A stretch of DNA of 64,000 bases from an uncultured Hyphomonas sp. GTDB lineage: Bacteria; Pseudomonadota; Alphaproteobacteria; Caulobacterales; Hyphomonadaceae. Below the pieces are notes generated by a model. The model made no database searches. It was not told where the DNA came from and saw only the letters and a program-made list of their open reading frames with translations. Shown piece by piece: positions 44,985 through 62,347 of the stretch. The position numbers were made by a program, and so were the translations under genes. How positions within the stretch are numbered: the stretch's first letter is position 1; each line of letters begins with the position of its first letter. The DNA is taken from positions 297 to 64,296 of the forward strand of contig CAZXQD010000005.1 in assembly GCA_964643405.1 (NCBI GenBank). The letters run 5' to 3'.

Positions 44985-45372
44985 GACATAGGCTTCAAGC
45001 ACCTCCGATTCATGGTCCACTGCGCGCCAGAGATAGTGCGTCTACCCACGAATCTTCACGAAGACCTCGCCCAGGTGCCAGGGCCATTGCTTGACCCGAC
45101 GCATCGCCTCGGACCTCCGCTTACGGACCTTATCTGCGAAGTATGTCACAAAGCGATTTACCTAAAGACGGACGCTTTCGTGGCAGACATCTATGCCTCG
45201 CTCGTGCAGGAGGTCTTCGACATTTCGTAGCGAGATCGGAGATCGGACATACATCAGCGCGCCTAGCTTGATGATCTCGGGCGATGTCTTGAAGTAGCGG
45301 AACGTGTTCTTGCGCAAAATCCAAGGCTAAACGCCATCACCGGCCGCCTCATTATCCGGTTTCGCTGACATC
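44985..45372. mobile_element. Degenerate IS6-like element fragment
   Basis: Reads LHEDLAQVP...TDAFVADIYASLVQEVFDIS, which resembles from memory a segment of alphaproteobacterial IS6-type elements; ends ...GCTGACATC; 128 bp repeated at 49913. Confidence 0.5.
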
Positions 45373-46260
45373 TCCGTGCCACCGGCGCAGATGATCAATT
45401 AAGGCGCGCAGCTTCGGCGCCATGTTCTGCCGCTGAGGGAAATACAGATAGAACCCCGCGAAGGGTGGCAGGAAATCCTCAAGCAGCGGCACCAGCGCGC
45501 CGTTTTCGAGATGTGGGCGCATACAATCCCTTGGCGCGAAGGTGATGCCGCCGTCCGACAGCGCCAGGCGCAGCATCAGCCCCAGATCGTTGGTCGTCAT
45601 TTGCGGGTTGACCATGACATCGAATGGAGTGCCTTCCTCTTCGAACTCCCACCGCCAGGGTGCGGTCTCCGGGCCCGGCCGCCACCCGATGCATCGATGT
45701 GCGAGAAGGTCACGCGGATGCGCGGGCACGCCGTGCTGCGCAAGATAGGCTGGCGTGGCTGCGGCGATCTCGCGCTGCGGCCCGCTGACCGGCACGGCGA
45801 TCATGTCCTGTTCGATCACCTCGCCAAGGCGGACCCCCGCATCATAGCCGTGCGCCACGATGTCGAATTCGGCGTCCGTGACGGTCACGTCCAGCGTGAC
45901 CTGCGGATACGCCTTGGCGAAGCGCGCCAGCATGGGGCCCGACAGAAACGCCTCGGCGATCGAGGTCACCGCCAGCCGCAGCCGTCCGCGAGGCGCGTCC
46001 TCGTGCCACTCCAGCGCGTCCTGCACCGCCGCCATCGGCGCGCGCAAGCCTGCAACCAGCCGCGCGCCGGCTTCGGTCAGCCGCACCGATCGGGTGGTCC
46101 GCATCACCAGCTGGATGCCCATGGCATCCTCCAGCCGCCGCACCCCTTGGCTGACGGCGGAGCGCGTGACGCCGAGGCGGTCAGCGGCGGCGCGGAAGTT
46201 CTGCTCTTCTGCGACGGCGAGCAGGAGCGGCAGCAGGTTCAGGTCCATCCGGCGCCTCAT
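45352..46260 (-). CDS. LysR-family transcriptional regulator
   Basis: NFRAAADRLGVTRSAVSQ, RTTRSVRLTEAG, YDAGVRLGE, PKLRALID. Confidence 0.93.
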   Translation of the reverse strand: MRRRMDLNLLPLLLAVAEEQNFRAAADRLGVTRSAVSQGVRRLEDAMGIQLVMRTTRSVRLTEAGARLVAGLRAPMAAVQDALEWHEDAPRGRLRLAVTSIAEAFLSGPMLARFAKAYPQVTLDVTVTDAEFDIVAHGYDAGVRLGEVIEQDMIAVPVSGPQREIAAATPAYLAQHGVPAHPRDLLAHRCIGWRPGPETAPWRWEFEEEGTPFDVMVNPQMTTNDLGLMLRLALSDGGITFAPRDCMRPHLENGALVPLLEDFLPPFAGFYLYFPQRQNMAPKLRALIDHLRRWHGDVSETG

Positions 46261-46362
46261 TTGTAAAGCGGCGCTAACCGCCCAGTCCAGCAGTCGGGCA
46301 ATACCGTGGACGGCGGCCCGCGTCCATCTTGCGCCGTGCAACAGGCTGAAAAGGAGAAAGCC

Positions 46363-47085
46363 ATGGACAAGGTCATTCTGATAACCGGAGCCTCCAGCGG
46401 CATCGGCGAAGGCATCGCGCGCGAACTCGCGGCGGGGGGCGCGACGGTTCTGATGGGCGCCCGTCGCACCGATCGGTTGGACAGGATCGCCGGCGAGATC
46501 CGTGCCGCGGGCGGAGTCGCCGCCACCCGCGCGCTCGATGTCACCGACATCGGGTCGATGCAGACCTTTGCGCAGACGGCGCTCGACCTCTGGGGCCGGA
46601 TCGACGTGCTGGTGAACAACGCGGGCATCATGCCGCTGTCGCCCATGTCCGCCCTCAAGTTCGACGAGTGGGCGCGGATGGTCGACGTTAACATCAAGGG
46701 CGTGCTCTGGGGCATTGGCGCGGTCCTGCCGGTGATGGAACGCCAGGGCGAAGGCCAGATCATCAACATCGGTTCGATCGGCGCGCTGCAGGCCGTGCCC
46801 ACCGCAGCGGTCTATTGTGGCACCAAATTCGCCGTGCGCGCCATTTCGGACGGGCTGCGCCAGGAAAGCAATGCCATCCGTGTCACCTGCGTGAACCCCG
46901 GCGTGGTGGAAAGCGAGCTCGCCGCGACGATCACCCACGCGGAAACGCAGGCCCTGATGGACAACTACCGCGCCATCGCGCTGAAACCTGGCGACATCGC
47001 CCGCGCCGTGCGCCAGCTGATTGAGGCCCCGGCAAACGTTGACACGACCGAGATCACGATCCGTCCCACCGCATCTGCCAACTGA
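46363..47085 (+). CDS. SDR-family oxidoreductase
   Basis: TGASSGIG, NNAG, YCGTK; AAGGAG RBS. Confidence 0.93.
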   Translation: MDKVILITGASSGIGEGIARELAAGGATVLMGARRTDRLDRIAGEIRAAGGVAATRALDVTDIGSMQTFAQTALDLWGRIDVLVNNAGIMPLSPMSALKFDEWARMVDVNIKGVLWGIGAVLPVMERQGEGQIINIGSIGALQAVPTAAVYCGTKFAVRAISDGLRQESNAIRVTCVNPGVVESELAATITHAETQALMDNYRAIALKPGDIARAVRQLIEAPANVDTTEITIRPTASAN

Positions 47086-47093
47086 GGTATGCC

Positions 47094-47414
47094 ATGACAC
47101 AATCACCACTTCTCGCCGCCGCGCTGCTGGCCATCGGCATGGAGTTCCGCGATCCCGACGTCCCACATCCTTACGTCGGGCTGTGGGTCACCGCCGACAA
47201 TCACGTCCGCCACGAGCTGTTGCCCAACGGGCGCTACATTGAGGCCCGCGGCGCGCGGGAGCACGCCTATGAGGGGCGCTACGAGGTGACCGGCACGCAC
47301 ATCGAGTATTGGGACGACACCGGCTTCACCGCCGATGGCGACTTCGTCGAACCGGACGTGCTGCATCATGGCGGCATGGTGCTCTATCGGAAGTCAGGGC
47401 AAACGCGCCGGTGA
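47094..47414 (+). CDS. Atu4866-domain protein
   Basis: YVGLWVTADNHVRHELLPNGRYIEARG...YWDDTGFTADG. Confidence 0.85.
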   Translation: MTQSPLLAAALLAIGMEFRDPDVPHPYVGLWVTADNHVRHELLPNGRYIEARGAREHAYEGRYEVTGTHIEYWDDTGFTADGDFVEPDVLHHGGMVLYRKSGQTRR

Positions 47415-47600
47415 CCAGACCTGCGCCCGATGACCCCGTTATGAGGGCGCAATGGCCTGCACAAAAGCCGGCTGGCATCCGGCGCCGCCATCGGTCCCGC
47501 CCGGTCGCCGCCGGGCGGAAATCCGTGTACAGCCATAGCGCCAAACTGCACGCTACCACGAACCCTTCCGGCAACGCCGCCAAGCCAAAAGGAACCTGAC

Positions 47601-48008
47601 ATGACAACGCCGCTTATACGTCTCAATCCCGCAGGACTGTTCGATTCGACACAGAACCACCATTCTCAGGGTACGCTGGTGCCCGACGGTCGGCTGGCGT
47701 TCTTTTCCGGCCAGATCGCGTGGCAGCAGGACGTGGAGACAGCGCCTGACTCGCTGGCCGAACAGACCGCAATTGTCTGCCGGAACCTGCGTACCTGCCT
47801 CGACAGCGTCGGCGCAGTGCCAGCGGATATCGTCAGCCTGCGGGCCTATATCGTCGACTGGTCGCCCGGAATGGCCGCCGAGGTCTTTCCGCCGCTCATG
47901 GCGTTTCTCGGTGATGCCATGCCCAGCGTGACCGGCATCGGTGTCAGCTCCCTGTTCGGGCCCGATCTGAAGATTGAGATCGAAATGGTCGTGCGTGCAC
48001 CCGGCTGA
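47601..48008 (+). CDS. RidA/YjgF-family protein
   Basis: FFSGQIA, IGVSSL, KIEIE; AAGGA RBS. Confidence 0.85.
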   Translation: MTTPLIRLNPAGLFDSTQNHHSQGTLVPDGRLAFFSGQIAWQQDVETAPDSLAEQTAIVCRNLRTCLDSVGAVPADIVSLRAYIVDWSPGMAAEVFPPLMAFLGDAMPSVTGIGVSSLFGPDLKIEIEMVVRAPG

Positions 48009-48289
48009 ACGCAGCGGAACGACCAAGGGCACGGCGTACTTCGAGACCTTGGCTGTTGATTGCTTTTGAGAATGCTGCCTGTCTAATGCCAACCCGTCTC
48101 CGCTTTTCGCGGGTCAGCAGGTGCTAGACAACGAGAAGTTCGCGCCATTAGCGAAGGGCGGCGTTTCGTAGCGATTTAAAGCCGGCTCTCCTCTCGATGT
48201 TCTCTGGTGATTGAAATGGTTGTGTACAGACGAATGCATTGAAGCGACTTTCTGCAGACTTCGCATTAGCCGAAAGCGCGACATTGCCC

Positions 48290-48657
48290 GCTCGCGTCGG
48301 CGAAGAGGCTTCAGATCTTTCGCTTGATGACATCCTGCAAGATCTCGCGGTCGAGCGTCAGGTCTGCCACGATCCGCTTGAGCCGGGAGTTCTCCTCCTC
48401 CAGCTCACGCAGCCGCTTCATCTCCGACGGCAGCAGACCGCCATACTTTTTCTTCCAGTTGAAGTAGGTCGCCTGGCTGATCCCTGCCTTCCGGCAGACC
48501 TCCGCCACCGGCGGCCCGTCCTCTCCCTGCTTCAGGATGAATGCCTTCTGGGCATCCGTGAACTTCGAGGCCTTCATCGTCTTCGCTCCTTTCCAGCCAG
48601 GGGAAATCTACGCGAAAACTCCAGCCTCAAACGAGGAATTTTTTAGGGGGCAGAGCA
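48290..48657 (-). mobile_element. Truncated IS3-family element (left IR + OrfA; OrfB lost)
   Basis: Left end TGCTCTGCCCCCTAAAAAATTCCTCG at 48657; transposase-like sequence stops shortly after the OrfA stop. Confidence 0.85.
48311..48577 (-). CDS. IS3-family transposase OrfA
   Basis: MKASKFTDAQKAFILKQ...VCRKAGISQATYFNWKKKYGG...LEEENSRLKRIVADL. Confidence 0.92.
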   Translation of the reverse strand: MKASKFTDAQKAFILKQGEDGPPVAEVCRKAGISQATYFNWKKKYGGLLPSEMKRLRELEEENSRLKRIVADLTLDREILQDVIKRKI

Positions 48658-48752
48658 ATCGCGGCATTGTCCGAGAACCGGCCTGAATTTGCTCCGAGCA
48701 TAACTGCCGCGCTGGAAGAGGAATACAAATCAGCAATCAAGTAGCGTCTGGC

Positions 48753-48858
48753 TTGGGCCAGATCGGCTCTGATGATGGATTTCGGCGTCCGGCAGGGTCA
48801 CCTCAATCCTGTCAGTGGGTTGCATCATGCGCACCAGGCCGGACATCGCCGAAAACAG
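48753..48858 (+). repeat. Modular direct repeat, copy 1
   Basis: Ungapped 73/106 identity to 56608-56713; last 70 bp 49/70 identical to 49790-49859. Confidence 0.8.
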
Positions 48859-48875
48859 TCACATCGGCCTTCGAT

Positions 48876-49751
48876 TCACAGGCGCCAAGCGGGCGCATAC
48901 AACTTTCCTGCAGAAGCACGCACCTCTTCAAACAGCGCGCCGATGGCGTCGACGCTGGCTTCCAGCGCTTCAGGGTTTGATCCGATGTTCGACAAGATCG
49001 AACGCAGACGAGGGCCAAAGCTGGCCGGTGCGATCTTGAACTGATCAATCTCGGAAATAGACGTCTTGTCATTGACAAGATAGACGCGGTTCAGCGCGAA
49101 CAAGGTAAGCACCAGTGCCTGTGCAAAACGTGTCAGACATCCCGCTACCCCATGAACGTCGCCATTCGCAGCGAACTTGGGCGCGAACGCAGTCAAGCCG
49201 AACTCGACGCTCCATAGCCGGCTCTGAACAACGGCTTTGGCCAATGCTTCTGGCATAATCGACACCTTGGCTTTCAAAACCGACAGCGTGGATCGAGGAT
49301 CGTGAAGCGGGACTGCAATTGCTGCTTCTCCCAACAGAGTGGGACCGAAGAAGCCGAATGGCGGTTGTTGGTCGAAATCAATCTCGAACCGCCCTTCAAC
49401 TGCATCCTTGAATGTGATCTCAACTTTTTCGAGTGAGCGGTAGAGCAGATCGACTCTCTGTCTTTCGATCGTCAGCCACGCGCCACCATCCACTCAGCGC
49501 CCCCATTCACCGAAGCCCGACACAACAGGGTCCGGCGTATCATTGATGCGCGACGCTATTTGGCGAACTTGCTGAATAGAGAAGGCCGTTCCCGGCCAAT
49601 AGTAGAGCCCAATATCTATATCCGAGTCGGGGCGGGCGCGCCCCCGCGCGTGCGATCCGCCCAGGACGACTGCTTCCACACCCGTCACTTCTCTGAACTC
49701 GTCCACGACCCTTTTCAGGATCGCACCTTGGAAGGGTGTAAGCTGTTGCAT
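48876..49751 (-). pseudogene. Nucleotidyltransferase-domain protein interrupted by one in-frame TGA
   Basis: LGGSHARG, DSDIDIG; GEWGR*VDGGAWL with TGA at 49494-49496 where Trp is expected. Confidence 0.85.
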
Positions 49752-49789
49752 CGTGTAAGTATGTCGAGGTGCCGGCGGGAGCGCAATGA

Positions 49790-49859
49790 CCGGCAGGGTC
49801 AACCCAATCGTGCCATCCGGCGGCCCCACTGAAACTAGGCCGGACTTCGCCGACAATTG
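49790..49859 (+). repeat. Modular direct repeat, copy 2 (blocks B+C only)
   Basis: CCGGCAGGGTCAACCCAATCGTGCCA...AGGCCGGACTTCGCCGACAA; 49/70 vs copy 1, 46/70 vs copy 3. Confidence 0.75.
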
Positions 49860-49912
49860 ACGTTCGACGGCACTTTAGTGAATGCGTTTGCTCCCGCCAC
49901 TGATCGAAGACA

Positions 49913-50040
49913 GGACATACAGCAGCGCGCCTAGCTAGACGATCTCCAGCCAGATATTGAAGTAGAGAAACGGGTTCTGGCTCATATTCCTAGGCTAACC
50001 GCTCTGACCGGTCGCCTCAAGACCCGGTTCCGTTGACATC
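49913..50040 (+). repeat. Second copy of the IS6-like terminal segment
   Basis: Ungapped 101/128 identity to 45245-45372. Confidence 0.85.
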
Positions 50041-50434
50041 ACTCTTCACGCTTGTCTCTCTAGCCCATGTTTCAACTCAATAATCGGAGCTCGGACTAAC
50101 TCAAACACTGGACCGCTTCTCGGGAGGTAGACCAGACTAACTCTTCGGCAAAGCCGATCGTCGTGGCACTTGTGCGGCCGAGATGGGGATAGTGGCGGCG
50201 GTCCTGGTCCGTCAGTTCGGCGTCTCCGAAATGTCGAGTCACCGCTGAATTCTCACACCGAGCTAGTCCATGGTTCGCAATCGCGTGTAGAAGCCGCATG
50301 GCCGACGAATTTGCTGGGCCGTTGTTGAGGAGCAGTCGGCTTCACCTGGAGCCAAGGACGGCATGTGCGTGGTTCAAAAAACTTCGCCGGCAGGTTATCT
50401 CTCTATGCATCTTTGAGGACTGTGCGAGGGACCG

Positions 50435-51700
50435 GTGAAGCCGAAACAAGTGAAGTCAATTCCCTGGACGAAAATCGCATTGACAATTTCAACAGCGCTG
50501 ATCTGCGCCATTGCGCTTTATGGATTGTCTTACGCTACAAGAGATTTGACGCGCTTTGGTGATCTTGCCGATCAAGCTGTTGACCGCGCACTTGCTCTTT
50601 CTGCGGATAGCGACGAAATCCCTCTAGGGCCCCGCATCGTAGTAATAGATTTCAATGATCGGACGCTTTCCAAACTGGGAAACCCTCCGCTTATTCCGCC
50701 TTCAAGTCTCGCGCTCGCCATAGAACAAACCGTCGAAATGCAGCCTCGGGCAGTCATGATCGATATAGATTTGTCGTGGATCAGCGAAGCGGACGATGTG
50801 GAGCGATTGAATAACGCTCTAGAAAGCTCTGAGCGCGCAGGTGTAGTTTTGCTCCTCTCGAGAGTGCGGTATCCAAATGCTGTGGACGGACGGCGCGATG
50901 TTTTTCCGCCGACGGCGTTTGACTCCGCAGTTCGCGAAAGTGCCACTGCAAACTGGGTCAGCGCTGAAGCCATTCAGAGCGGTGATGGTATCGTTCGCTC
51001 AATAGCTCCTTTCGTTGAGGGATACGCCAATGGGCAGCTGGTTCGGGTCCCAGCCCCCCATTTGATTTTAGCGTTGAAAGGGGATGAAGCCGATCTAGCC
51101 GGTGCACGCGCGCGTTTTGGGGCGGGAGCGGATGAGAAAGTATTCTTGGCGGGTGCACAGAAAATCGACCTTTCGCAACGCGAAAATTCAATCGTGCGGT
51201 TCACTGACAGCTGGCCGCCGAAGTCAGGCCACCGTATCTCGGTTTTACCTGCCACGCCCTTGATTGAGCAGAGTGGACCAATTGATGATAGTTTGATCAA
51301 AGATTCGATTGTAGTGATCGGTTCGAGCGGCTCTCTTCAGGGCGATATGCACGAAACGCCTCTGGGACCAATGCCAGGTGCGTTCATCATAGCGAATGCA
51401 ATTGGGTCTTGGCAGGCTGGCGGGCCGCAGGTTGGCTGGTCTTTTCTGTTGGGTGGATTGATCGTTCTCGCCGGGGCGCTTGCGGTTTCGGCAATGGTCT
51501 CCCTGTCAATGGTGATTTGCCCGACGAGGTTTCGAGATAAACTGAAAAACTTCCTTCCCGGGACTGCCGTGACACTAATTTGGATCACCGCTCAGTTTAC
51601 AGGAGTAGCCGTCGATATAGGATGGCTGATGATCCTAGCCTATCCTGTAGCATGGATTGCGGTTGCTGCGTTTGGCCGAGCAAAGCAGAGCGAAGCATGA
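50435..51700 (+). CDS. CHASE2-domain membrane protein without cytoplasmic output domain
   Basis: RIVVIDFND, PRAVMIDID, DGIVR, VVIG, DMHETPLGPMPGAFIIANAI, then three TMs and stop. Confidence 0.85.
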   Translation: MKPKQVKSIPWTKIALTISTALICAIALYGLSYATRDLTRFGDLADQAVDRALALSADSDEIPLGPRIVVIDFNDRTLSKLGNPPLIPPSSLALAIEQTVEMQPRAVMIDIDLSWISEADDVERLNNALESSERAGVVLLLSRVRYPNAVDGRRDVFPPTAFDSAVRESATANWVSAEAIQSGDGIVRSIAPFVEGYANGQLVRVPAPHLILALKGDEADLAGARARFGAGADEKVFLAGAQKIDLSQRENSIVRFTDSWPPKSGHRISVLPATPLIEQSGPIDDSLIKDSIVVIGSSGSLQGDMHETPLGPMPGAFIIANAIGSWQAGGPQVGWSFLLGGLIVLAGALAVSAMVSLSMVICPTRFRDKLKNFLPGTAVTLIWITAQFTGVAVDIGWLMILAYPVAWIAVAAFGRAKQSEA

Positions 51701-52509
51701 AGTTTCTTGCGTTGTTTCTTCTTTTTTTGGGCTTCTCAGGTTCGGCTCTAGCCGAGCGATGCCACAGAATCCCGCCAGGGGTCATCGTCGACTTCAATGA
51801 GCCTTCCCATGAGTATCGGCTGGTGCGGAGCAAACGAGAGGAGCCGATCCGGTTTTTCATGCCGCTCATCTCCGGCGACAGGCTCAGTTTTTCGCATACC
51901 GGTTATCTTTCGGTTCAAACTGCAGACGGAACGGCAACTTGGTCGAGCCAATACTCCCCAATTTGCGTTGCGGAAGGCGAGCCCGTAACCTGGGCCGAGC
52001 GAATTTCGCAGCATATAACAGAACGTCTAACTCGCTCGCGGGACCGAGGTTATGTTCCAACGGTTACACGCGGTGAAGGTTCTTTGCGCGTCGCATTTGG
52101 CGATGCTGGTTCAGGTTATGCCGTGATTGGATCTGGAACGCGCAATCTGGCATTTTCTTGGCTCCAGGGCATCTCCCCCTTTGAAGTGCGCCTTATCGAC
52201 AAGGCCGGCGCTCTTGTCGTTGACGAGTCCCAAGTGCTTTCACGGACGTTGATTTTGGAGTCTCCCCGGGTCATTCCTGAAGGTGACTACATTCTCGAGA
52301 TAAGGGACAGTTCGGGAGATGATCCGATTGTCGTCTCCCTGAAAGCGATTTCACCCAATGGCCCTGTAACTGACGCTAGTTCCGCAATGGCGCTAGCTGG
52401 AGAGCTCGCAGCATCTGGACGGGAATTGGATGCCTTCTTCGTCCTCAGCCCCTACAGGTTTGAAAGCAAATCCGCTTCGGATTTCATGGATGTTCTCGCT
52501 GGTCGTTAA
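51697..52509 (+). CDS. Exported hypothetical protein, translationally coupled to the CHASE2 gene
   Basis: ATGA overlap; signal peptide MKFLALFLLFLGFSGSALA; central PTVTRG. Confidence 0.75.
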   Translation: MKFLALFLLFLGFSGSALAERCHRIPPGVIVDFNEPSHEYRLVRSKREEPIRFFMPLISGDRLSFSHTGYLSVQTADGTATWSSQYSPICVAEGEPVTWAERISQHITERLTRSRDRGYVPTVTRGEGSLRVAFGDAGSGYAVIGSGTRNLAFSWLQGISPFEVRLIDKAGALVVDESQVLSRTLILESPRVIPEGDYILEIRDSSGDDPIVVSLKAISPNGPVTDASSAMALAGELAASGRELDAFFVLSPYRFESKSASDFMDVLAGR

Positions 52510-52597
52510 GGCAGCCAGCGCCGCTGATTGAGCAGCATTGCTGTTTGGTCTCGGCCACAGCAGGGTTGTACTCTGACTCAAGCGTGGAAACACGCCT

Positions 52598-53605
52598 TCA
52601 AGGACTGACGAAACAGGACCTCACGTGGTCAAATGAGAACTCTCTTCCCTGTGGATTGAGAACACTAGCAGTTCTCGTTCTTGCTTCATGTCTTACGCTA
52701 ATGATTTCGATCGGGCGCCCACCACACTCGGCCGCAACGACCTTTTTTCCCACAGTGGTATGGACCTCTGCGGGTTCCCGGTCGCCTCGGATCAAAATCT
52801 GCTCTTCTGTAAGCCAGTCGACACGGGCCGAATAGCCGTCTGCCGAAATCGACAGTAAACGCTTAGCGCTAACGGCATCCCACAGTTCTAGGTGGTCACC
52901 TGTCAACCGGAGCAGCGTCCTGCCAGAAGGGCTGAGTGCCGCATGGGCGGTACGAGCAGCCCCAATGGACGAGTAGACGATGTTTCCGTTATCCCGGCAA
53001 ACGATGCCAGGCGTTGCCTTGTCGTTGAGCCTGAGAAGGAACGACGCACAGTCGCCTGTCACAATTCGCGCCCCTGTTCGCTCGATCCAAGGCACCCGCA
53101 TTTCGGTTATCACGCCGCCTGGGTAGCTAAATCCGAGGAGGCGCGCTGCGTTTTCTCCCGTCGGTGGGTCTGAAAAGAGAAGAAACTCCTCGATTTGACT
53201 TTGTCTGTCTGTGTAAGCCGCCTTAAGGTCCGCCTCTGACATTGGGGGGCGAAGTAGTTGGGCTCCCGTTTCTGAATATCCATCGTCAAAATCGAGCACG
53301 CAAACAGCTGCGGCACTGTCGACAACAAATCCAAATCGCATTTCAGTGTTAACGATCCCGATCTCTGCATTTCGGCAAAGCTTAGCGAGTTGGGAGAGAG
53401 CAGAACCCTTGTCAGCTGGGACGGCCGGGCGGGTTGGATCGACGGTGTTTGCCGCAAAATCTGCAAGCAGGCTTTGCCACTCTCCTTCATCTAAAGGAGC
53501 CTCGTAAGCAATTCTCGTCATTGCCTCCTCTCCTTCAGTTTGCGCAATTGCCGACTGGCCAAATAGCAGTGCGATGGAGATAATTGAAGCAAGACGGATT
53601 TTCAT
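52598..53605 (-). CDS. Exported hypothetical protein with WD40-like C-terminal blades
   Basis: Signal peptide ending AIA; AALSPSGRTLL...LELWDAVSAK. Confidence 0.7.
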   Translation of the reverse strand: MKIRLASIISIALLFGQSAIAQTEGEEAMTRIAYEAPLDEGEWQSLLADFAANTVDPTRPAVPADKGSALSQLAKLCRNAEIGIVNTEMRFGFVVDSAAAVCVLDFDDGYSETGAQLLRPPMSEADLKAAYTDRQSQIEEFLLFSDPPTGENAARLLGFSYPGGVITEMRVPWIERTGARIVTGDCASFLLRLNDKATPGIVCRDNGNIVYSSIGAARTAHAALSPSGRTLLRLTGDHLELWDAVSAKRLLSISADGYSARVDWLTEEQILIRGDREPAEVHTTVGKKVVAAECGGRPIEIISVRHEARTRTASVLNPQGREFSFDHVRSCFVSP

Positions 53606-53671
53606 ATGGTCGGCCTGAGCTCACCAATATCAGAGTACCTTATGAAAAAACATAAACGGCAGGACCTACTT

Positions 53672-56524
53672 ATGTCGATGCGCATTCTTATTTTGGTTCT
53701 GAGTGCCGTGATTGTTTCTTGCAGCTCGGAGAGCGCCAGAGCCGAGCAGGCAGCGGACGAGCGCAGGAGTCGGGATGCATGGTATGCAGCAACGAGTTTT
53801 TTTGATTTTCCGGAAGCTCGTGACGATGTTTCGCGCGGAGGCATCCAAGCGATACGAACCGAACTGGAGACTGTGTTCAAAGAGGGCAGCATCTCCAGTT
53901 CGGTTCGCCACAAAGCCTGGGAAATCCAGGAAGTGCTTGGTAGGCTTGCGTTCTATGCAGGAGAGTTTTCGCTCGCGGCGCGCGATTTCGAAGCGGCACT
54001 CGCATCGATTGGCCGGGATGCAGATGCCCAGAATCGCCGCCGGCTAGAGAACCGTCTTGCGCTCGCACTCGCGTTGGATGGCCGGTTCACAGAGTCTGAA
54101 GGCGTGTTCTCTAGGTTGGAGCCCTGTTCCGGAGGCGAATGCGATCTGCGTGAAGCGTACACAGGATGCGGAGGGCTCGGCTATAGTCTTGACAACCTGG
54201 ACCTTGACCGATTTGTGACGGAGAGCATTCCGCTCGGTGCTTGCGCCAGCCGCCGCCTGGTTGCTGCTTCTGAAAGTGCGATGGCTCAATCGCGCTCTGA
54301 TCTAGTCGAGCCTCTGCTCTACGCAGCGGACTTCGTCGCGCGGCCGATACCGATCGAAGAACCACGCGATGCCGGGTTGGCCCGGCTCGACGCCGCCGAC
54401 GCACTAGTCGATCTATTGCTTTTACAACGCCGGGGAAATGATGCTGCCGCGCTAATGGTTGATTTAGCGTCCGATCCGAATGTTTTGGACGCAGGCCCCG
54501 ATAAAGTCAGGAAACTGAACAGACGAATTGCCGCCAGCCGGTCTGACCAAGTCTCATCCAGGTTCCGCATTGCAACCTCGCGAGAGGATACGGCGGACGA
54601 ACTCAAAGACATCCAGTCCTTACTGTTCAAACTAGCAGGTTTCGGCGGTAGTTTTGGTCCCGCTAGCTCCAGAAACTCAATGGGGTACTTTCGTCGCGCG
54701 GCTCAGACGAGCGCAGCCCTAAGTGACTTCGAGGCTGCATTGGATTACGGATATCAGGCAATTTTGGGCACAGTCTCCTTTACGACGCCAGGGCTGCCAC
54801 TGCGCGTCGATATGGGGCCGACACCTCCGGACTGTCCGCCCGGAAACGCTGAACTGCCGAGATGCAACGCATGGTATGACGAGATTGTTGAACTATACGC
54901 GAGCGAAGAGCTATCAGCCGTATTGAGCGAATACGCCGTCTACCTCAGTTTGGCTGGTCGCCCGGGAGACGCTCTGGACACGGAAGACCGGGCCCAGGTC
55001 ATTTTCCGCAACTGGCTTCGCAGAAACTGGAGCAGTATGCGAGTGTTGTCGTCCGGTCTGCTCTCACGATCTGATCTTGATTCTGAGCGGTTGTATCAGT
55101 TGAGGCCGCTAGTCACAGGCCAGCCTGACAGGGCGAAACGCGCGTTCGCCCTTGGGTTCGAAATCATTCAAAATGTGCAATTCAGTCGGGTAGATGCAGC
55201 GCTTCGGCAATCCGTCGCGAGGCAGTCGCTTGAGGACGACGCGACACGTCTGCTGATTCAGCAACGGCAAGTGCTGTCACAGCAAAGCGATACCTCGGTT
55301 GACTTGAGCGAGGCGCGCCGCGGTGAAATCAGACGCAGAATTGCGGAGATCGACAGCCGGTTAACAGTTCCGTTCTCTGAGATAGAACGAAAGGCAGGAT
55401 TTCTTCCTCTTGATGCCGACAGTGCAAGCTCGCTGCTTGCTCCGGATGAAGCGCTAATGGTTATTGCCTCATTGCCCGACCGGACCGAAGTCGTGGTTGT
55501 CAGCCGCACAGAGCGCATTTGGTACGCATCTGATATTTCTGCCGCAGATCTTTCAAAAAAGGTGGCTGCGCTGAGAGCGCACGTTGATGGCGACGTTCCG
55601 TACAACGCAGACGTCGCTTACGAAGTCTACAGTTCTGTCTTCCGGCCCGCCGAAAGCGCAATCGGCAAGAAACGCCTGCTGGTCGCGGTTTCCGGACCTC
55701 TATCCGCGCTGCCGCTCTCAATGCTTGTCACTGAACGCCCCGTCGGGAATACCTACCGAGCAAAACTGAAGAACGCCCGCTGGCTAGCGCAAAGGCACGC
55801 CGTTCTTTACCTTCCCTCAGTGGCAGCGCTCAGTTCGCTAAGGCGCGACAAGGAAGGAAGTCGCCACACCAGTTTCATCGGGTTTGGAGATCCAATCCTG
55901 GACACGATCGAGCCTCCACAAGTCGAAGTAAGGCGCGAAACCGGTTTGGCGCGCCTTCAATTTGCAGCGTCTGAGATCAGACGCCTTGCGGCGGTCATGA
56001 AGGCACCAGAAAGCCAAGTCTATCTAGGAGCTGATGCCACAAAGCAGAAGTTTGTAGAACTGGACCTGTCGAGCGTGTCAGTGATCGCATTTGCCACTCA
56101 CGCGCTCAAGGCAGCCGGCCCAACTCGACCGGAACCCGGTCTCATTTTCAGCCGAACGGCGGGAGCGGACGATACGTTCTTGGCAGCTTCTGAGGTTGCC
56201 TCTCTTCGGATTGGCGCCGACCTCGTAATACTGTCCGCATGCAACACTGCGGGGGAAGATGGATCTGGCGGAGAAGCACTTTCCGGATTGACACAATCCT
56301 TTCTTTTCGCGGGCGCGCGAAGCGTTGTAGCGACTCACTGGTCGGTACTCGACAAAGCTGCAGCGGATATCATGCCAACAGTGCTGGAACCGAATATCGC
56401 AGTTCTTCCAAGCATGATTGCTGACCAGTTGCAGCGTGCTGTGCTTGATCATTTGGCTGCCGCGGAGTCTGAGACTGAACTGGAACCACGATACTGGGGC
56501 GCATTTGTCGTGGTGGGCGGCTGA
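53672..56524 (+). CDS. TPR-CHAT (caspase-like cysteine protease), probable lipoprotein
   Basis: LSAVIVSC lipobox-like leader; TPR-like helices; GPLSALP, GFGDP, FATHA (His), LVILSACNT (Cys), FLFAGARSVVATHWSV, PRYWGAFVVVG. Confidence 0.9.
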   Translation: MSMRILILVLSAVIVSCSSESARAEQAADERRSRDAWYAATSFFDFPEARDDVSRGGIQAIRTELETVFKEGSISSSVRHKAWEIQEVLGRLAFYAGEFSLAARDFEAALASIGRDADAQNRRRLENRLALALALDGRFTESEGVFSRLEPCSGGECDLREAYTGCGGLGYSLDNLDLDRFVTESIPLGACASRRLVAASESAMAQSRSDLVEPLLYAADFVARPIPIEEPRDAGLARLDAADALVDLLLLQRRGNDAAALMVDLASDPNVLDAGPDKVRKLNRRIAASRSDQVSSRFRIATSREDTADELKDIQSLLFKLAGFGGSFGPASSRNSMGYFRRAAQTSAALSDFEAALDYGYQAILGTVSFTTPGLPLRVDMGPTPPDCPPGNAELPRCNAWYDEIVELYASEELSAVLSEYAVYLSLAGRPGDALDTEDRAQVIFRNWLRRNWSSMRVLSSGLLSRSDLDSERLYQLRPLVTGQPDRAKRAFALGFEIIQNVQFSRVDAALRQSVARQSLEDDATRLLIQQRQVLSQQSDTSVDLSEARRGEIRRRIAEIDSRLTVPFSEIERKAGFLPLDADSASSLLAPDEALMVIASLPDRTEVVVVSRTERIWYASDISAADLSKKVAALRAHVDGDVPYNADVAYEVYSSVFRPAESAIGKKRLLVAVSGPLSALPLSMLVTERPVGNTYRAKLKNARWLAQRHAVLYLPSVAALSSLRRDKEGSRHTSFIGFGDPILDTIEPPQVEVRRETGLARLQFAASEIRRLAAVMKAPESQVYLGADATKQKFVELDLSSVSVIAFATHALKAAGPTRPEPGLIFSRTAGADDTFLAASEVASLRIGADLVILSACNTAGEDGSGGEALSGLTQSFLFAGARSVVATHWSVLDKAAADIMPTVLEPNIAVLPSMIADQLQRAVLDHLAAAESETELEPRYWGAFVVVGG

Positions 56525-56607
56525 TCACGTGGAAGAGTTACTGAGATTCGAACTTTCGGTGCCTTGGCAAAAATCAGCCATCCGCATTGAGTTGTTCAAT
56601 GACCGAA

Positions 56608-56713
56608 TTGGGCCAGGTCGGCTCTGATCGTCACGTTACGCGATCGGCGGGATCGGTCCAATCGTGTCATTCGACCATCTCACGCGCACCGGGCCGCAGT
56701 TCGCCGATAACGG
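56608..56713 (+). repeat. Modular direct repeat, copy 3
   Basis: TTGGGCCAGGTCGGCTCTGAT (20/21 vs copy 1) plus blocks B and C at identical spacing. Confidence 0.8.
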
Positions 56714-56821
56714 CCGTTACCAGTCTGAGTCCCTTTCTAAAATTTAGAGAAGAAGCCGAGCATGTATCTAGGGGTTATTTGCTCCTAATACGCGCGCCTA
56801 CGATTTTCTAACGACGACGCT

Positions 56822-57097
56822 TCAGCCCCGGTACTTGCCAAAGAGGTCCACAAGCTCAGAAAACTTCTGCCTCTGGCTCTCGGCATCACCGTCCCGAATC
56901 GCCTCTTCCACGCAATGCGCGGCATGGTTCTTCAGGAGTTCGTCTTCGACCTTTCCGAGCGCCGCCTTGATCGCCTGAACCTGCGTCAGGATGTCGATAC
57001 AGTAGCGGCCTTCCTCGACCATGCCGGAGACACCTCGCACCTGACCCTCGATTCTCCTGAGCCGGGTTACAACGGATTTAGGTGGAGATTGATGCAT
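56822..57097 (-). CDS. csoR: CsoR/RcnR-family metal-sensing repressor
   Basis: RLRRIEGQVRGV, RYCIDIL, HAAHCV (C-H-C ligands). Confidence 0.9.
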   Translation of the reverse strand: MHQSPPKSVVTRLRRIEGQVRGVSGMVEEGRYCIDILTQVQAIKAALGKVEDELLKNHAAHCVEEAIRDGDAESQRQKFSELVDLFGKYRG

Positions 57098-57126
57098 TTG
57101 ACATATACCTCTATGGGGTATACATA
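57098..57126. promoter_or_regulatory. CsoR-type operator within a sigma70-like promoter
   Basis: TTGACA at 57098; TATACCTCTATGGGGTATA at 57104-57122. Confidence 0.8.
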
Positions 57127-57155
57127 ACCGTTCAGTCCAAATTGGTCAACGCTTC

Positions 57156-57578
57156 ATGATGGCTTCGCTTCGCAGCGCGTTTATTGCCCTGACCCTGCTC
57201 GTGCTGGGCGCAGGGCACGCAGCGTGTGCCTGCGTAGCGGTCGCAGGCGCGCTGGAGGCACCAGACATTGCCGTTTCAGCTCCTTCAGCCCACAGCCACC
57301 ATGCGGCTGCAAATGATCCGTCACAGGACCAGCACTGCAATGGGGGCTCTGAAGTTCCGGAGCATGACTGCACCCATTGTGTGACCGCTGCACTGCCTGC
57401 TGACGCATCGCTGAAGGCGGTCAGTGCCACTCCTGCGCACGTCGCAATCCTCCCGCCGGTTCCGGAACTGAAATCAGTCAGCCTGTTGAGGCTCGCCGAC
57501 CTGAATACAGAACCAGACGCAGGGCATCCTCGAACTCGACCGTCTCCAGTCACACTGAAAGTCCGCCTGCAGATTTGA
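57156..57578 (+). CDS. Small Cys/His-rich exported protein (CopL/DUF2946-like)
   Basis: Signal/TM, ACAC, HSHH, HDCTHC, C-terminal RPSP; first gene of the cop cluster. Confidence 0.6.
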   Translation: MMASLRSAFIALTLLVLGAGHAACACVAVAGALEAPDIAVSAPSAHSHHAAANDPSQDQHCNGGSEVPEHDCTHCVTAALPADASLKAVSATPAHVAILPPVPELKSVSLLRLADLNTEPDAGHPRTRPSPVTLKVRLQI

Positions 57579-57691
57579 TCCTGTGATGAACCCTGCGCGC
57601 GCCTCTCCGGCAGCGCAGAATGTTTCATCCATTCTAGCGTGCGCGTCTTTGCGCCCGCTTCCCGGCCGATCAATTGCAGGACAACGTTCCA

Positions 57692-58339
57692 ATGAAACTC
57701 TCCCACTCAATTCTCGCCGCTGCCGTTGTGTTTGCAGCTTCGCCCGCCTTTGCGCTTGAAGGCGACAGTTCCGCTGCCGCGATGCAGCATTCTGATCATT
57801 GCGGCCTGCCCATGGGCGAAGGCACGGTGGCCGGACTCGACGTCAAGGCATCCAAGGCCACGATAGATCACATGCCCATCGCCGCCCTCAACTGGGACGC
57901 CATGACGATGGACTTCAAGGCTGCCAAGGGCATTGACCTGTCCGCCTTCGCAGCCGGTGACCGCGTCCATTTCCTTCTGACTGAGGACACAAAATCGAAG
58001 TCTTACAGGATTGAAGCGATGTGTTCGCTCGATGCCCCGAAAGGCCTGCATGACGCCTGCATGGGCAAGATGCATGAGACGGCCATGACGCTCACGGCAG
58101 CCAGCGGCAAATCCTGCGATATGGGCGGGATGGATCATGGCGCAATGCCAGGAATGGACCACACCGGCATGAAGAGCATGGATCATGGCAATATGGATCA
58201 CATGAAGCACGGCGAGATGAAACCGGCCAATGCCGAGACCATGAACTGCAAGGAGATGTGCGCGATGATGAAGAAGTCATCCGATACTCCGCCGGCAGAC
58301 GAAAAGCCTGCTGCTGTGATGGACCATAGCCAGCACTGA
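57692..58339 (+). CDS. CusF-like copper-binding protein with Met/His/Cys-rich tail
   Basis: Signal peptide; IDHMPIAALNWDAMTMDF; MDH repeats. Confidence 0.82.
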   Translation: MKLSHSILAAAVVFAASPAFALEGDSSAAAMQHSDHCGLPMGEGTVAGLDVKASKATIDHMPIAALNWDAMTMDFKAAKGIDLSAFAAGDRVHFLLTEDTKSKSYRIEAMCSLDAPKGLHDACMGKMHETAMTLTAASGKSCDMGGMDHGAMPGMDHTGMKSMDHGNMDHMKHGEMKPANAETMNCKEMCAMMKKSSDTPPADEKPAAVMDHSQH

Positions 58340-58408
58340 TCCGGTCGCCTGACGCGCAGCGCGCTTCCGGCGCGCGCGGCAGGCGTTCCTCACACAAGGT
58401 TCGAACCC

Positions 58409-60301
58409 ATGCTCACACGACGCAATCTACTCCGCACAGCCGCCGCCGGTGGTCTCTTCGCGGCATCCAGCGCCCTGCTCCCGGCTTGGGCACGCAGCGC
58501 CGCTGCCGGCAACAAGGGAATCTTTGAAGTCTCCGGTAACGCCTTTGACCTCACCGTCGGCCACAGCGCCGTCGAGATTGGCGGCCGCTCCGGCCATGCC
58601 ATCACCATCAACGGAACGCTGCCCGGACCACTCATCCGGTTCCGCGAAGGCGAAAAGGTGAGCCTCAAGGTCAACAACACACTCGACGAGGACACATCGA
58701 TCCACTGGCACGGGCTTCTCGTGCCGTTTCACATGGACGGGGTGCCCGGAGTTTCCTTCCCTGGCATCAAGCCGAAGTCCACGTTCACTTATGAGTTCGC
58801 GGTCCCGCAGAGCGGTACATACTGGTACCATTCGCACTCGGGTTTGCAGGAGCAAATGGGCCATTATGGTCCTCTGATCATTGACCCCGCAGGCAAGGAT
58901 CCCGTCAGTTATGACCGGGAGTATGTGCTCGTCCTGTCAGACTGGACGTTCGAACATCCGCACAAGGTATTTGCGCGCCTCAAGAAGGATGCGGCGGTCT
59001 ACAACTTTCAGCAGCGCACCGTTGGCGATTTCCTCAAGGACGCCAGGGAGAATGGCTTCGGAAAGACATTTGCTGACCGGGCCTCCTGGGGCGCCATGCG
59101 CATGTCTCCGACCGATATCTCGGATGTAACTGCATCCGTCTACTCTTACCTCATCAATGGTCATGCGACCTCAGACAACTGGACCGCGATATTCAATTCC
59201 GGCGAGCGTGTGCGGCTACGGATCATCAACGCGTCAGCCATGACAATCTTCAATTTCCGGATTCCGGGACTGCCGATGACGGTGGTAGCCGCTGACGGGC
59301 TCAATGTCCAACCAGTGGAGACCGACGAGTTCCAGATCGGGGTTGCAGAAACCTATGACGTGATCGTCAGTCCGACCCGCGCCCGGCCCTTTGCCCTCGT
59401 CGCGGAATCGATCGATCGGTCAGGACAGGTTGTTGCGACGCTGGCCCCTGAAGCCGGACTGGTAGCAACCGCTCCCCTGCTTCGCGAGCGCCCAACGCTC
59501 ACGCACCGCGACATGGGCATGGACATGGCGTCGATGGATCACGGTGCGATGGGTCATGGCGCGATGGCCGAGATGGACCATGGCAGCATGGCAGGAATGG
59601 ACCACAGCGCAATGCCCGGCATGGATCATAGCGCCATGGCGAAGACCGATACCGTCCCGCAAGACCATGACCACAAGATGGGTGTGGGTGTCGACAACGT
59701 CGCGATGGTTCAGGTAAGCCGCATCGACGAGCCGGGACTCGGTCTCGAGAATGTGCCGCACCGGGCGCTGCGGTATTCGCAGCTCAGGAGCCTCACACCC
59801 AACCCCGACACACGGGCGCCAGGCCGCGAAATGGAGATCCATCTCACGGGCAACATGGAACGCTACATGTGGTCCTTCGACGGCGTGAAGCTGAGTGAGG
59901 TAACGGGTCCGATCATTTTTCATGAAGGCGAACGCCTGCGCGTGACACTCGTCAACGATACGATGATGACGCATCCCATCCATTTGCACGGCATGTTCTT
60001 CGATCTCGTGGTTGGCGATACCGATCACAAGCCGCGCAAGCACACTGTGAACGTCAAACCGGCGGAGCGGCTGTCCTTTGATGTCACGGCAGACCATGTG
60101 GGAGACTGGGCTTTCCACTGCCACCTCCTCTTCCACATGCATGCCGGCATGATGCAGGTTGTCTCGGTCGTGCCGCGCAGTAAGGCCGCGATGTCTGATG
60201 ACGAGCACAAAGGACACAAGCCTTCCATTGCTCCGTCAGCGGAAGACAGGGCAAAGACCGAAACCGGGATGCCGGGTATGCAGCACGAAGGACATCGCTG
60301 A
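58409..60301 (+). CDS. copA: Copper-resistance multicopper oxidase
   Basis: TRRNLL Tat signal; HWHG, WYHSH, HPIHLHG, HCHLLFHM; MDH-rich insert. Confidence 0.96.
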   Translation: MLTRRNLLRTAAAGGLFAASSALLPAWARSAAAGNKGIFEVSGNAFDLTVGHSAVEIGGRSGHAITINGTLPGPLIRFREGEKVSLKVNNTLDEDTSIHWHGLLVPFHMDGVPGVSFPGIKPKSTFTYEFAVPQSGTYWYHSHSGLQEQMGHYGPLIIDPAGKDPVSYDREYVLVLSDWTFEHPHKVFARLKKDAAVYNFQQRTVGDFLKDARENGFGKTFADRASWGAMRMSPTDISDVTASVYSYLINGHATSDNWTAIFNSGERVRLRIINASAMTIFNFRIPGLPMTVVAADGLNVQPVETDEFQIGVAETYDVIVSPTRARPFALVAESIDRSGQVVATLAPEAGLVATAPLLRERPTLTHRDMGMDMASMDHGAMGHGAMAEMDHGSMAGMDHSAMPGMDHSAMAKTDTVPQDHDHKMGVGVDNVAMVQVSRIDEPGLGLENVPHRALRYSQLRSLTPNPDTRAPGREMEIHLTGNMERYMWSFDGVKLSEVTGPIIFHEGERLRVTLVNDTMMTHPIHLHGMFFDLVVGDTDHKPRKHTVNVKPAERLSFDVTADHVGDWAFHCHLLFHMHAGMMQVVSVVPRSKAAMSDDEHKGHKPSIAPSAEDRAKTETGMPGMQHEGHR

Positions 60302-61098
60302 TGAACAGCAGACATTTTTGCTCGGCCTTCGTATTGCTGTCCTTGGCGACCGCAGTTCCCGCCATCGCGCAGGAGCCGCCCGTACCCGGATCGCAGGCCG
60401 CAGCCTACTGGGACGCGGATGAGTTCAAGGCCTCTCAGGACGCGCTGAAAAAGGAACATGGCGGAGGAACAAACTTCATGATCCTAGCCGACCGGTTCGA
60501 ATACCAGTCCGGCGAGGGATCCCCCGCTCTTCTTCTGGAAGGTCAGGGCTGGTGGGGTACGGATGAAAGCCGGCTCTGGATAAAGTCCGAGATCGACTAC
60601 GATCTGGATGCCAGCAGTTTCGAAGAGGCTGAGGTACAGGCGCTCTGGTCCAAGCCCATCGCTCGGTACTTCGACCTGCAGGCAGGTGTTCGACATGATT
60701 TCGAACCGGGCCCATCCCGCACCTACGCCGCTCTCGGCGTTCAGGGGCTTGCTCCCTACTGGTTCGAAGTCGATGGCGTTTTCTTCCTGAGCGAAGAAGG
60801 CGATCTCTCCGCCCGTGTGGAAGCGGAGTATGAGTTCCTGCTGACACAGCGCCTCGTCCTGCAACCCCGCACAGAGCTGAACTTCGCGATGCAGGACGTG
60901 CCGGAACTTGAAACCGGCGCCGGACTTTCGACGGCCGAGCTTGGCCTGCGCCTGCGGTATGAGTTCGACCGTCAGTTCGCCCCCTATGTCGGCGTCAACT
61001 GGAAAGCCTCGACCGGCGACACCGCAGACTTCGCCCGCGCCCGCGGTGAGGACGCCGAAACCCTCTCCTTCGTCACCGGGATCAGGCTCTGGTTCTGA
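60301..61098 (+). CDS. copB: Copper resistance outer membrane protein B
   Basis: DRFEY, GVQGLAPYWFE, LTQRLVLQP, GLRLRYE, GIRLWF. Confidence 0.93.
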   Translation: MNSRHFCSAFVLLSLATAVPAIAQEPPVPGSQAAAYWDADEFKASQDALKKEHGGGTNFMILADRFEYQSGEGSPALLLEGQGWWGTDESRLWIKSEIDYDLDASSFEEAEVQALWSKPIARYFDLQAGVRHDFEPGPSRTYAALGVQGLAPYWFEVDGVFFLSEEGDLSARVEAEYEFLLTQRLVLQPRTELNFAMQDVPELETGAGLSTAELGLRLRYEFDRQFAPYVGVNWKASTGDTADFARARGEDAETLSFVTGIRLWF

Positions 61099-61140
61099 AC
61101 CGTATCCAACTTTAGCTCAACGTCCGCGAAAGGACACAAA

Positions 61141-61494
61141 ATGCCCCGTTCAAAAGTGATTGCAGCCACACTTCTGGCCTTCGCCCTCTCCGCCGCGCCT
61201 GCGCTCGCGCATGTCAGTGTCAAGACGACCAACATTGCAGACGCCGCCGTCATAGACGTGTTACCGGACGACTTCACGTTCAGCTTCAGCCAGCCAGTCG
61301 GTCTGATCGCGTTCTCGGTGAAAACCGAAGCAGGAGAGGCCGTCGAGATTGGCTTCACACCTCCAAAGGCACCGGCTGCCACATTCACAGTTCCGCTACC
61401 TGATCTGGCGCCGGGTCTCTACACTGTGGAGTGGCGCACGATGTCAAAAGATGGTCATCCGATGACCGGCAAATCGACCTTCGAACTGAAGTAG
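61141..61494 (+). CDS. copC: Copper chaperone CopC
   Basis: Mature N-terminal His after ALA; GLYTVEWRTMSKDGH. Confidence 0.9.
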   Translation: MPRSKVIAATLLAFALSAAPALAHVSVKTTNIADAAVIDVLPDDFTFSFSQPVGLIAFSVKTEAGEAVEIGFTPPKAPAATFTVPLPDLAPGLYTVEWRTMSKDGHPMTGKSTFELK

Positions 61495-61506
61495 GGGGCC
61501 GCCGCC

Positions 61507-62337
61507 ATGCCCCTGCTGGACGCCGCCAATATCGTAACCAAGGTATTGCTCTACGCAGTCAGCCTCGGAGCGATCGGGGCGGCGCTCCACGGGGCGCTCG
61601 GCCTGATGACGAACCGCCGTGCATATTTCCGGCTCGCAGGTCTGGTGACCGTTGCAGCGGCTCTGCGGCTCGTCATTCTGAACGCTCAGATGGGCGGAAG
61701 TCTTGGCGCGGCTTTCTCGACTGAACAGTTCGGTTGGACCTGGGCCGCTGGCGGGCGCCCTGCCCTCGCGCTGCTCGTCGGCGCGGGCTTTCTCGTTGTG
61801 GCCGGCCTTATACGTCACCGGGTCCTTCTGGTGCCCGCCGCCATCAGCATCAGCGCAAGCTTTGCCCTTACAGGACATTCAGCGGGGCTGGCGGCGCCGG
61901 GCTTGGCGCCATGGATCGTGGCGGGCCATCTTCTGATCGCAGGCTTCTGGTTTGCCGCGCCGGCGACTCTTTGGCCCCGGTCCGGGATGCAGGACGCTGA
62001 TGTTCTGGCCCGTACCGAGGCCTTCAGCCGGGTGGCACGCGTTATCGTGCCCCTGGTGTTCCTCTCAGGCATCTATCTGTTCTGGCGTATCAATGGCGGG
62101 TTCTCCGGCCTGCTCAGCTCCGGATACGGACAATTGCTTGCCTCCAAGCTTCTGGCGGCAACGCTGCTTCTCGGGCTCGGGGCGGTCAATCTGATGTTCG
62201 TCACGCGCCGGCTGGCAGCGCAGCCCGCCAGAGGGCGAGCCGCCTTGCGCGCGACACTGCGCGCCGAGGCTGTTCTGTTCGCCGCGATCGTCATCATTAT
62301 TGCCGCAGCCACAACCGTTTCTGGTCCAACTACCTGA
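61507..62337 (+). CDS. copD: CopD-family membrane protein
   Basis: ALTGHS, GHLLIAGFW, FSRVA, YGQLLASKL. Confidence 0.87.
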   Translation: MPLLDAANIVTKVLLYAVSLGAIGAALHGALGLMTNRRAYFRLAGLVTVAAALRLVILNAQMGGSLGAAFSTEQFGWTWAAGGRPALALLVGAGFLVVAGLIRHRVLLVPAAISISASFALTGHSAGLAAPGLAPWIVAGHLLIAGFWFAAPATLWPRSGMQDADVLARTEAFSRVARVIVPLVFLSGIYLFWRINGGFSGLLSSGYGQLLASKLLAATLLLGLGAVNLMFVTRRLAAQPARGRAALRATLRAEAVLFAAIVIIIAAATTVSGPTT

Positions 62338-62347
62338 GGAGCCTAAA

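Follow-up and report, generated by a model that had tools for sequence, protein, structure and literature searches.

The stretch of DNA analyzed in this work (the window, 64,000 nucleotides) comes from an uncultured Hyphomonas sp., and its positions 50435-56524 hold four intact open reading frames (ORFs). In order, these encode a membrane protein with a CHASE2 domain (plus strand), a small secreted-type protein here called the partner (plus strand), a 335-residue protein (minus strand) and a predicted caspase-like protease of the CHAT family (plus strand). The module is real and conserved. It is a variant of systems that combine CHAT, a secreted partner and CHASE2, set apart by a receptor that carries no enzyme, by a partner of an unnamed family with one predicted cut site, and by its carriage in a repeat-bounded cassette. 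The most economical reading is a relay in the periplasm, in which the protease would act on the partner and the partner on the receptor.

Proteins encoded by the block

The first gene (50435..51700, plus strand) encodes a 421-residue protein in which Pfam recognizes CHASE2 (E=4e-21, residues 35-327) and no other family over its cut-off, with no cyclase, kinase, EAL or phosphatase domain. According to hydropathy, a single hydrophobic stretch lies at the N-terminus and three lie in the C-terminal part, the last of them being followed by about 5 residues. The canonical layout of CHASE2 receptors is thus present in part, i.e. the domain followed by three transmembrane helices, while the cytoplasmic enzyme domain is absent, which agrees with the output-less receptor proposed in the first-pass annotation. 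Pfam also shows CHASE2 alone, with no output family, in all eight homologues scanned among the short CHASE2 genes of the 12 loci described below, and several homologues retain a helical tail of 20-48 residues. An AlphaFold model of the periplasmic part has a mean predicted local distance difference test score (pLDDT) of 84; a Foldseek search with this model gave no match at E<=0.001, and the CHASE2 and CHAT profiles found no sequence match among solved structures. The other CHASE2 gene of this genome (G000:C1:20772-24491, locus L002) encodes a CHASE2-EAL protein of 799 residues and is preceded by a gene with a FecR domain.

The second gene (51697..52509, plus strand) is translationally coupled to the first, its start overlapping the CHASE2 stop codon (ATGA). 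Its product, the partner, has 270 residues and an N-terminal hydrophobic leader, and matches no Pfam or NCBIfam family. Model and fold search suggest a leader, a FecR-like beta N-domain (residues 24-95), a helix and linker, an immunoglobulin (Ig)-like domain (about 120-223) and C-terminal helices; the model has a pLDDT of 65 and a predicted template modelling score (pTM) of 0.40, and the fold search returned generic Ig matches, with a best Z of 8.1 for the N-domain. Residues 24-95 matched FecR-family proteins (hhalign probability 90.4, E=1.4e-6) in a comparison set of four FecR proteins that had themselves been picked as weak matches. The linker contains the motif TVTRG (residues 122-126; 52060..52074, plus strand), whose Arg125 is the predicted P1 residue of a cut by CHAT. 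Coupling and motif are as first described, and the exposure then attributed to the motif is suggested by a stretch of low model confidence (pLDDT<50 over residues 103-139 of P0002).

A HMMER search of 1.84 billion representatives gave 150 listed matches, 41 of them full-length and the rest long multi-Ig proteins, which were set aside. Thirty-nine of the 41 are new, i.e. not identical to the seeds, and one or two of these (such as P0018 and P0027) may be near-copies. Arg125 is present in 35 of the 39 homologues and is Lys in 3, and the residue after it in the 35 is Gly (21), Ser (7) or Asn (3) in 31 cases. The arginine sits 29-35 residues ahead of a conserved Trp, and the adjoining linker columns are variable. 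When counted without alignment in the 30 sequences that have a WxGG anchor, R-[GSN] occurred at this spacing in 24, versus 93 of 915 background windows. This conservation, together with the precedent of HetF discussed below, supports Arg125 as the predicted cut site. The idea that TRG corresponds to the RG|T self-cleavage motif of FecR was not supported, the residue two positions after the arginine never being Thr, Ser or Cys in the 35 homologues. Word-based homologue searches yielded little, and no relatives of the partner were found in the viral contigs or plasmids searched.

The last gene (53672..56524, plus strand) encodes a 950-residue protein with a CHAT domain (PF12770, E=3e-43, residues 651-949; 148.7 bits against a cut-off of 24) and an intact dyad, with His810 in FATHA and Cys857 in LSAC, and profile and dyad together predict a protease. 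Its leader ends in IVSC17, with a lipobox-like Cys17; the CHAT leaders of the related loci L087 and L088 are without a lipobox cysteine, so lipidation is not conserved. Tetratricopeptide repeats (TPRs) match weakly here (TPR_16, E=0.027), but are over the cut-off in the closest homologue (TPR_2, E=2e-6). The earlier description of a TPR-CHAT protein of about 950 residues therefore holds for length, domain, leader and dyad, with a weak match for the TPR part. CHAT was found in only 33 of 200 genomes of the family and in 0 of 45 of the genus.

The remaining ORF (52598..53605, minus strand) is convergent with the partner gene and divergent from the CHAT gene, and because of its strand the four genes do not form one operon; the module first described is confirmed as four real, intact genes, not as a single transcription unit. 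The 335-residue product is of secreted type and possibly a partial beta-propeller. It has no Pfam or NCBIfam match, and WD40 clusters appeared in the Atlas at 0.86-0.87 only (recognition 1933, below 2300), so that the WD40 label initially proposed is unproven. Its cysteines are conserved with its homologues, in L087 and the near-copy L088 (E=2e-9). We propose that it serves this sub-lineage as an accessory subunit, its gene standing at the place of the two-partner secretion pair of other loci. An N-terminal hydrophobic stretch is present in all four proteins according to hydropathy, and these leaders suggest that all of them are exported.

The block is also visibly different in composition, as had been noted in the first-pass annotation: its content of guanine plus cytosine (GC) is 0.552 versus 0.630 for the genome, a value equally low in 2 of 508 bins of the same size, and GC at third codon positions is 0.51-0.57 versus 0.72 and 0.84 in two neighbouring genes.

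Recurrence of the trio in other genomes

A search with the CHASE2 gene gave matches in 2 of 200 genomes of the family, both with a short CHASE2 gene, a coupled secreted partner and CHAT, and in 0 of 45 genomes of the genus, and a genus-wide DNA search gave no match inside the block among the best 150 of 398 matches listed. Profiles of the partner gave full-length matches in 3 of 300 genomes of the class and 1 of 350 of the phylum, and in 400 class genomes they yielded seven full-length matches, four of them new. Locus L087 came from a scan of metagenomes with a CHASE2 pattern and its near-copy L088 from a partner scan of genomes. Weak partner matches were left out of the counts. In L081 and L064 they were CopC-like or confined to the N-domain; those in L158-L161 are FecR proteins, of which one adjoins CHASE2-SpoIIE and none is accompanied by CHAT; the match in L086 (E=2e-8) lies next to a C14 caspase gene where the contig ends.

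Twelve other loci with a full-length partner were obtained, nine by searching only with the partner (L078-L080, L085, L088, L154-L157) and three through CHASE2 (L007, L008, L087), and 18-21 kb around each partner homologue were inspected. All 12 hold an output-less CHASE2 gene (485-544 residues) and CHAT, and L087 and L088 hold all four genes in a different order, which answers in the affirmative the question of co-occurrence elsewhere raised by the first-pass annotation. Identities to the homologues in L087/L088 are 23% for the minus-strand protein, 35% for the partner and 36% for CHAT, the latter over its full length. TpsA or TpsB matches are present in 6 of the 12 loci and the minus-strand gene in 2. 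Together with the block studied here, these loci represent about six lineages. In a quick tree, the linked CHAT proteins are spread over at least four separate parts, one of them beside CHATs linked to DUF928, a scatter which argues that the link between CHAT and partner is not one recent inheritance. Among 35 further CHAT loci of the family, many on short contigs, a weak CHASE2 match was seen in one. In two genera the module is retained in 7/7 sampled genomes, beside metabolic genes in the loci read.

Some of these loci have additional features. The element of L087/L088 (L088 being from Caulobacteraceae RH-10) carries a VirD4-like gene, a pYEATS protein, a HipA-like kinase and a 1469-residue P450/Dyp-peroxidase fusion, and in L088 an integrase-like ORF was identified by eye. 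Beside the module in L007 (10332-16349) lie a secreted C14 caspase, an OmpA protein with an NTRG motif and a trypsin-DUF4384 protein.

Related systems, proposed mechanism and alternatives

The first-pass annotation considered characterized CHAT proteins to be cytoplasmic, which is not correct: DdvA of Myxococcus xanthus is an anti-sigma factor with a periplasmic TPR-CHAT of solved structure (PMC11506125). DdvA and the CHAT protein of the block both have an extracytoplasmic TPR-CHAT of about 900 residues with a His-Cys dyad, and for DdvA a protein-triggered cut of a flexible linker is proposed; DdvA is a transmembrane anti-sigma factor with a sigma factor as output (PMC11506125), whereas the protease of the module is separate and exported. 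Between its two repeats, the block encodes neither a sigma factor nor an anti-sigma factor. HetF of Anabaena cuts PatU3 at Arg117|Ser118, and Arg is preferred by the C50-like clan (PMC9457339). The proposed module resembles this system in pairing a CHAT protease with a substrate of its own, for which a cut between Arg and a small residue is predicted in our case; the HetF CHAT domain and PatU3 act on the cytoplasmic side, and CHASE2 is not part of that system (PMC9457339). Csx29/Craspase is a caspase-fold protease gated by TPRs, but the CHAT protein studied here is far below the cut-off of the Csx29 NCBIfam model (10 bits versus 300). In EACC2-caspase-CHASE2 systems a caspase-fold protease is also linked to CHASE2, although there it is a cytoplasmic caspase fused to CHASE2, with an ECF sigma factor and DUF1822 (PMC8195603).

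CHASE2 receptors repeatedly adjoin a secreted FecR-like, MtxA or DUF928 protein. FecR-CHASE2 operons (PMC5192318) and CHASE2-DUF928 adjacency (PMC5587647) are in print, and CHASE2 cyclases of S. meliloti respond to a protein signal (PMC13001267). Neighbourhoods of CHAT, DUF928 and CHASE2 (PF12770, PF06051, PF05226), often with TpsA/ShlB, share with the module an exported CHAT and an adjoining CHASE2 gene, and their DUF928 proteins are small, secreted and bear one or more RG motifs directly before an Ig-like and helical part, as the partner does. They differ in that their CHASE2 genes are long (650-803 residues, with cyclase and SpoIIE seen for two), while the partner is not a Pfam DUF928 protein and bears an extra FecR-like N-domain. 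CHAT was present in 4 of the 6 DUF928 loci examined, and the DUF928 proteins beside it have 1 to 19 RG units at the place equivalent to Arg125, two of them (L129:7184-8062 and L130:677-1594) having 13 and 19 in tandem before the Ig domain. The long tandem x-x-R-G arrays of these two proteins and of L114:1-366 could be multi-copy cut sites, bait or peptide precursors. The DUF928 profile matched 0 of 44 members of the partner family at E<=0.1, our genome has no DUF928, and the comparison of the partner with a five-sequence DUF928 profile gave E=0.24 (hhalign). MtxA of magnetotactic bacteria (PDB 4Z29) is also secreted, of about 300 residues, with an N-domain, a flexible Arg linker, an Ig and a helical part, and adjoins CHASE2 (PMC4439547), the difference being that its CHASE2 receptor carries an adenylate cyclase. 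In the Atlas, MtxA (PF24045/PF22433/PF22121) is a lead for the partner at 0.87, and both N-domains match FecR-family proteins. With a nine-sequence partner profile, MtxA ORFs ranked among the 18 best of 207, with weak E-values, which a deeper profile did not repeat; the direct profile match (hhalign) was not significant, and 4Z29 was absent among the 50 fold matches listed for the partner model. The partner thus resembles DUF928 and MtxA by layout and context, yet is assigned to neither. In the literature accessible to us, supplements aside, we found no description of an output-less CHASE2, alone or together with CHAT, nor of the family to which the partner belongs or the conserved arginine, although loci of this type might be listed in the source data of PMC8195603.

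Our preferred reading, to which we give slightly less than an even chance, is that CHAT cuts the partner after Arg125 and thereby switches its engagement of CHASE2, the membrane helices being the likely output. In its favour are the presence of an output-less CHASE2 gene and CHAT in all 12 partner loci when CHAT is so infrequent in the family, the spread of the linked CHATs in the tree, the retention of Arg125 within a variable linker, the site cut by HetF, the RG arrays of DUF928 proteins beside CHAT, the repeated siting of CHASE2 receptors next to a secreted protein, the response of the S. meliloti cyclases to a protein signal and the translational coupling of the first two genes. By analogy with Csx29 and DdvA, the TPR region would hold the protease off until a protein cue arrives. 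A cut at Arg125|Gly126 would part the FecR-like N-domain from the Ig-helical half and expose a new N-terminus with a small residue, which seems somewhat more plausible than not, and with slightly greater confidence we expect that the partner or its cleavage product would bind the CHASE2 domain. The step that follows is more doubtful: the four-helix bundle might change state or recruit an unlinked membrane protein, so that the response would stay in the envelope or start from it. As no enzyme is attached to CHASE2, only three candidates for the output are left, namely the bundle in the membrane, an unlinked membrane partner and the protease.

Several observations weigh against this reading. No output of the module was identified among its genes, and seven of the 12 loci are from two genera and hence not independent. 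In the family, a full-length partner was present in 0 of 35 other loci with CHAT, many of them truncated by the end of a contig; the next closest CHATs are among these 35, from which it follows that this type of protease does not need the pair. A periplasmic TPR-CHAT is already known from DdvA, and other CHATs cut after Met or Leu (PMC11506125). MtxA, with a TVRRS linker, has a long CHASE2 gene next to it in 10/10 loci and CHAT or a caspase within about 10 kb in 0/10. The conservation of Arg125 is slightly circular, since the search profile of the partner included it, and the 39 homologues were counted by sequence, independently of gene context. Outside its N-domain, the partner showed no homology to either MtxA or DUF928 in profile comparisons.

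A reversed flow is unlikely in our estimation. In this case CHASE2 would keep the partner at the membrane as a bait or pseudo-substrate inhibitor, and the output would be the protease once released, its possible targets being a foreign protein, a TpsA adhesin or the product of the minus-strand gene. Such a flow would account directly for the absent cytoplasmic domain, and the bait-like RG arrays of DUF928 proteins, the TpsA or TpsB matches in half of the loci and the holding of separase by securin (PMC11506125) point in its direction, but the CHASE2 proteins of DUF928, MtxA and FecR loci bear a cyclase, a phosphatase or EAL, which argues for inward signalling as the ancestral job. We regard it as improbable that the linker arginine is instead a CHAT-independent feature of CHASE2 partners, i.e. 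a binding determinant or the site of another protease, with CHAT co-located for other reasons. The MtxA loci without nearby CHAT would fit such a feature, as would the crystallization of MtxA only after trypsin had removed residues up to 141 (PMC4439547) and the self-cleavage of FecR at Gly181|Thr182 (PMC12036975). CHAT is nevertheless present in all 12 partner loci, the residues found two positions after the arginine make FecR-type self-cleavage after glycine unavailable, and the FecR match is limited to the N-domain.

It appears still less probable that the output-less protein is a co-receptor or decoy which pairs with a full-length CHASE2 enzyme from another locus, in this genome the CHASE2-EAL protein of contig C1. 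This genome and 8 of 10 others tested do carry one or two long CHASE2 genes, and the helical tails of several homologues would suit such pairing; the tail here, though, is of about 5 residues, and no CHASE2 gene besides the output-less one was found in G070, which is a single contig and 99% complete, or in G074 (95%), so this pairing cannot be general. The first-pass annotation had also contemplated that the CHASE2 gene might be a truncated cyclase pseudogene, which would here stand beside unrelated island genes. An insertion-sequence-like fragment and a stop-split nucleotidyltransferase gene do lie nearby, but other genomes encode CHASE2 proteins of the same short architecture (18-46% identity), the whole set of four genes is found again in L087, the next gene starts within the stop codon, and a contig of run X2 (which could be the source sample) covers 51637-52034 without any difference, and we give this explanation a negligible chance.

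The preferred relay can be extended to a bolder version, which we consider rather unlikely: a foreign protein would activate the exported TPR-CHAT, the cut partner would be the CHASE2 ligand and the four-helix protein would be an effector depolarizing or remodelling the membrane, giving an abortive defence by a circuit borne on a mobile cassette and lying wholly outside the cytoplasm. If true, the DUF928 and MtxA proteins that accompany CHASE2 enzymes would be explained in the same way, by a cut at an arginine. A role in defence agrees with the carriage of the block in a cassette and with the mobile element of L088. It does not fit the retention of the module in all sampled genomes of two genera, beside metabolic genes, and the only match to anti-phage components in PADLOC was to BovA (47 residues, E=9e-4), which is not meaningful; the role in defence or competition initially suggested thus has little direct support.

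Repeat-bounded setting and implications

The block is flanked by copies of an imperfect 110-bp repeat, a partial one on the left (49787..49863, plus strand; nhmmer E=9.5e-11, model positions 35-111) and a full one on the right (56608..56716, plus strand; E=2.4e-24, this copy having been in the seed). Their presence on both sides delimits the four genes as one 6.7-kb unit without the need of any protein argument. The right copy is 69% identical over 104 bases to a third one, at 48753-48862, which encloses a nucleotidyltransferase and DUF4037 gene (one frame, 48876-49856, minus strand) split by an in-frame TGA at 49494-49496 and lying between two repeats. The genome has 24 matches to the repeat at E<=0.01 (9 of them seeds), with 21 further copies outside the window, for instance in G000:C8:1327-4133 (5), C147 (3), C169 (3), C173 (2), C229 (2) and C5:65931. 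They are often in same-strand arrays separating cargo of one or a few genes with a GC of 0.53-0.59, and Rfam has no family for the repeat and none in 44000-58000. Judged from the direct repeats between cargo genes, the layout is like that of a cassette array, and the repeat family suggests an undescribed or unrecognized gene-cassette array in this genome.

On C147, an unbroken 301-residue paralogue of the nucleotidyltransferase (84%) also stands between copies of the repeat. In run X2, one contig connects position 56631 with 48784, with 7 other letters, and could represent an excision circle or merely another copy of the repeat. To the left, at about 48075-48650 of the window, is a fragment which we take to be insertion-sequence-like, with no Pfam match and with matches in several genus-mates. 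To the right, a copper-resistance cluster extends over 56822-64000 (metal-sensitive repressor, CusF, and multicopper-oxidase-like and P-type-ATPase-like ORFs). It is common to many genus-mates and duplicated on C18, and in the genus-mate locus L117 two copies of the repeat about 430 bases apart lie beside the same cluster.

To our knowledge, no direct ligand of CHASE2 has been established, and most exported CHAT proteases are without a known substrate. The module brings both questions together in a compact, naturally delimited unit of 6.7 kb that comprises one protease, one receptor and one candidate substrate in which a single cut site is predicted, and point mutants (C857A in CHAT and R125A in the partner) would make both of them testable. 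The conservation of an enzyme-less CHASE2 protein, for its part, implies an output that lies outside current annotation.

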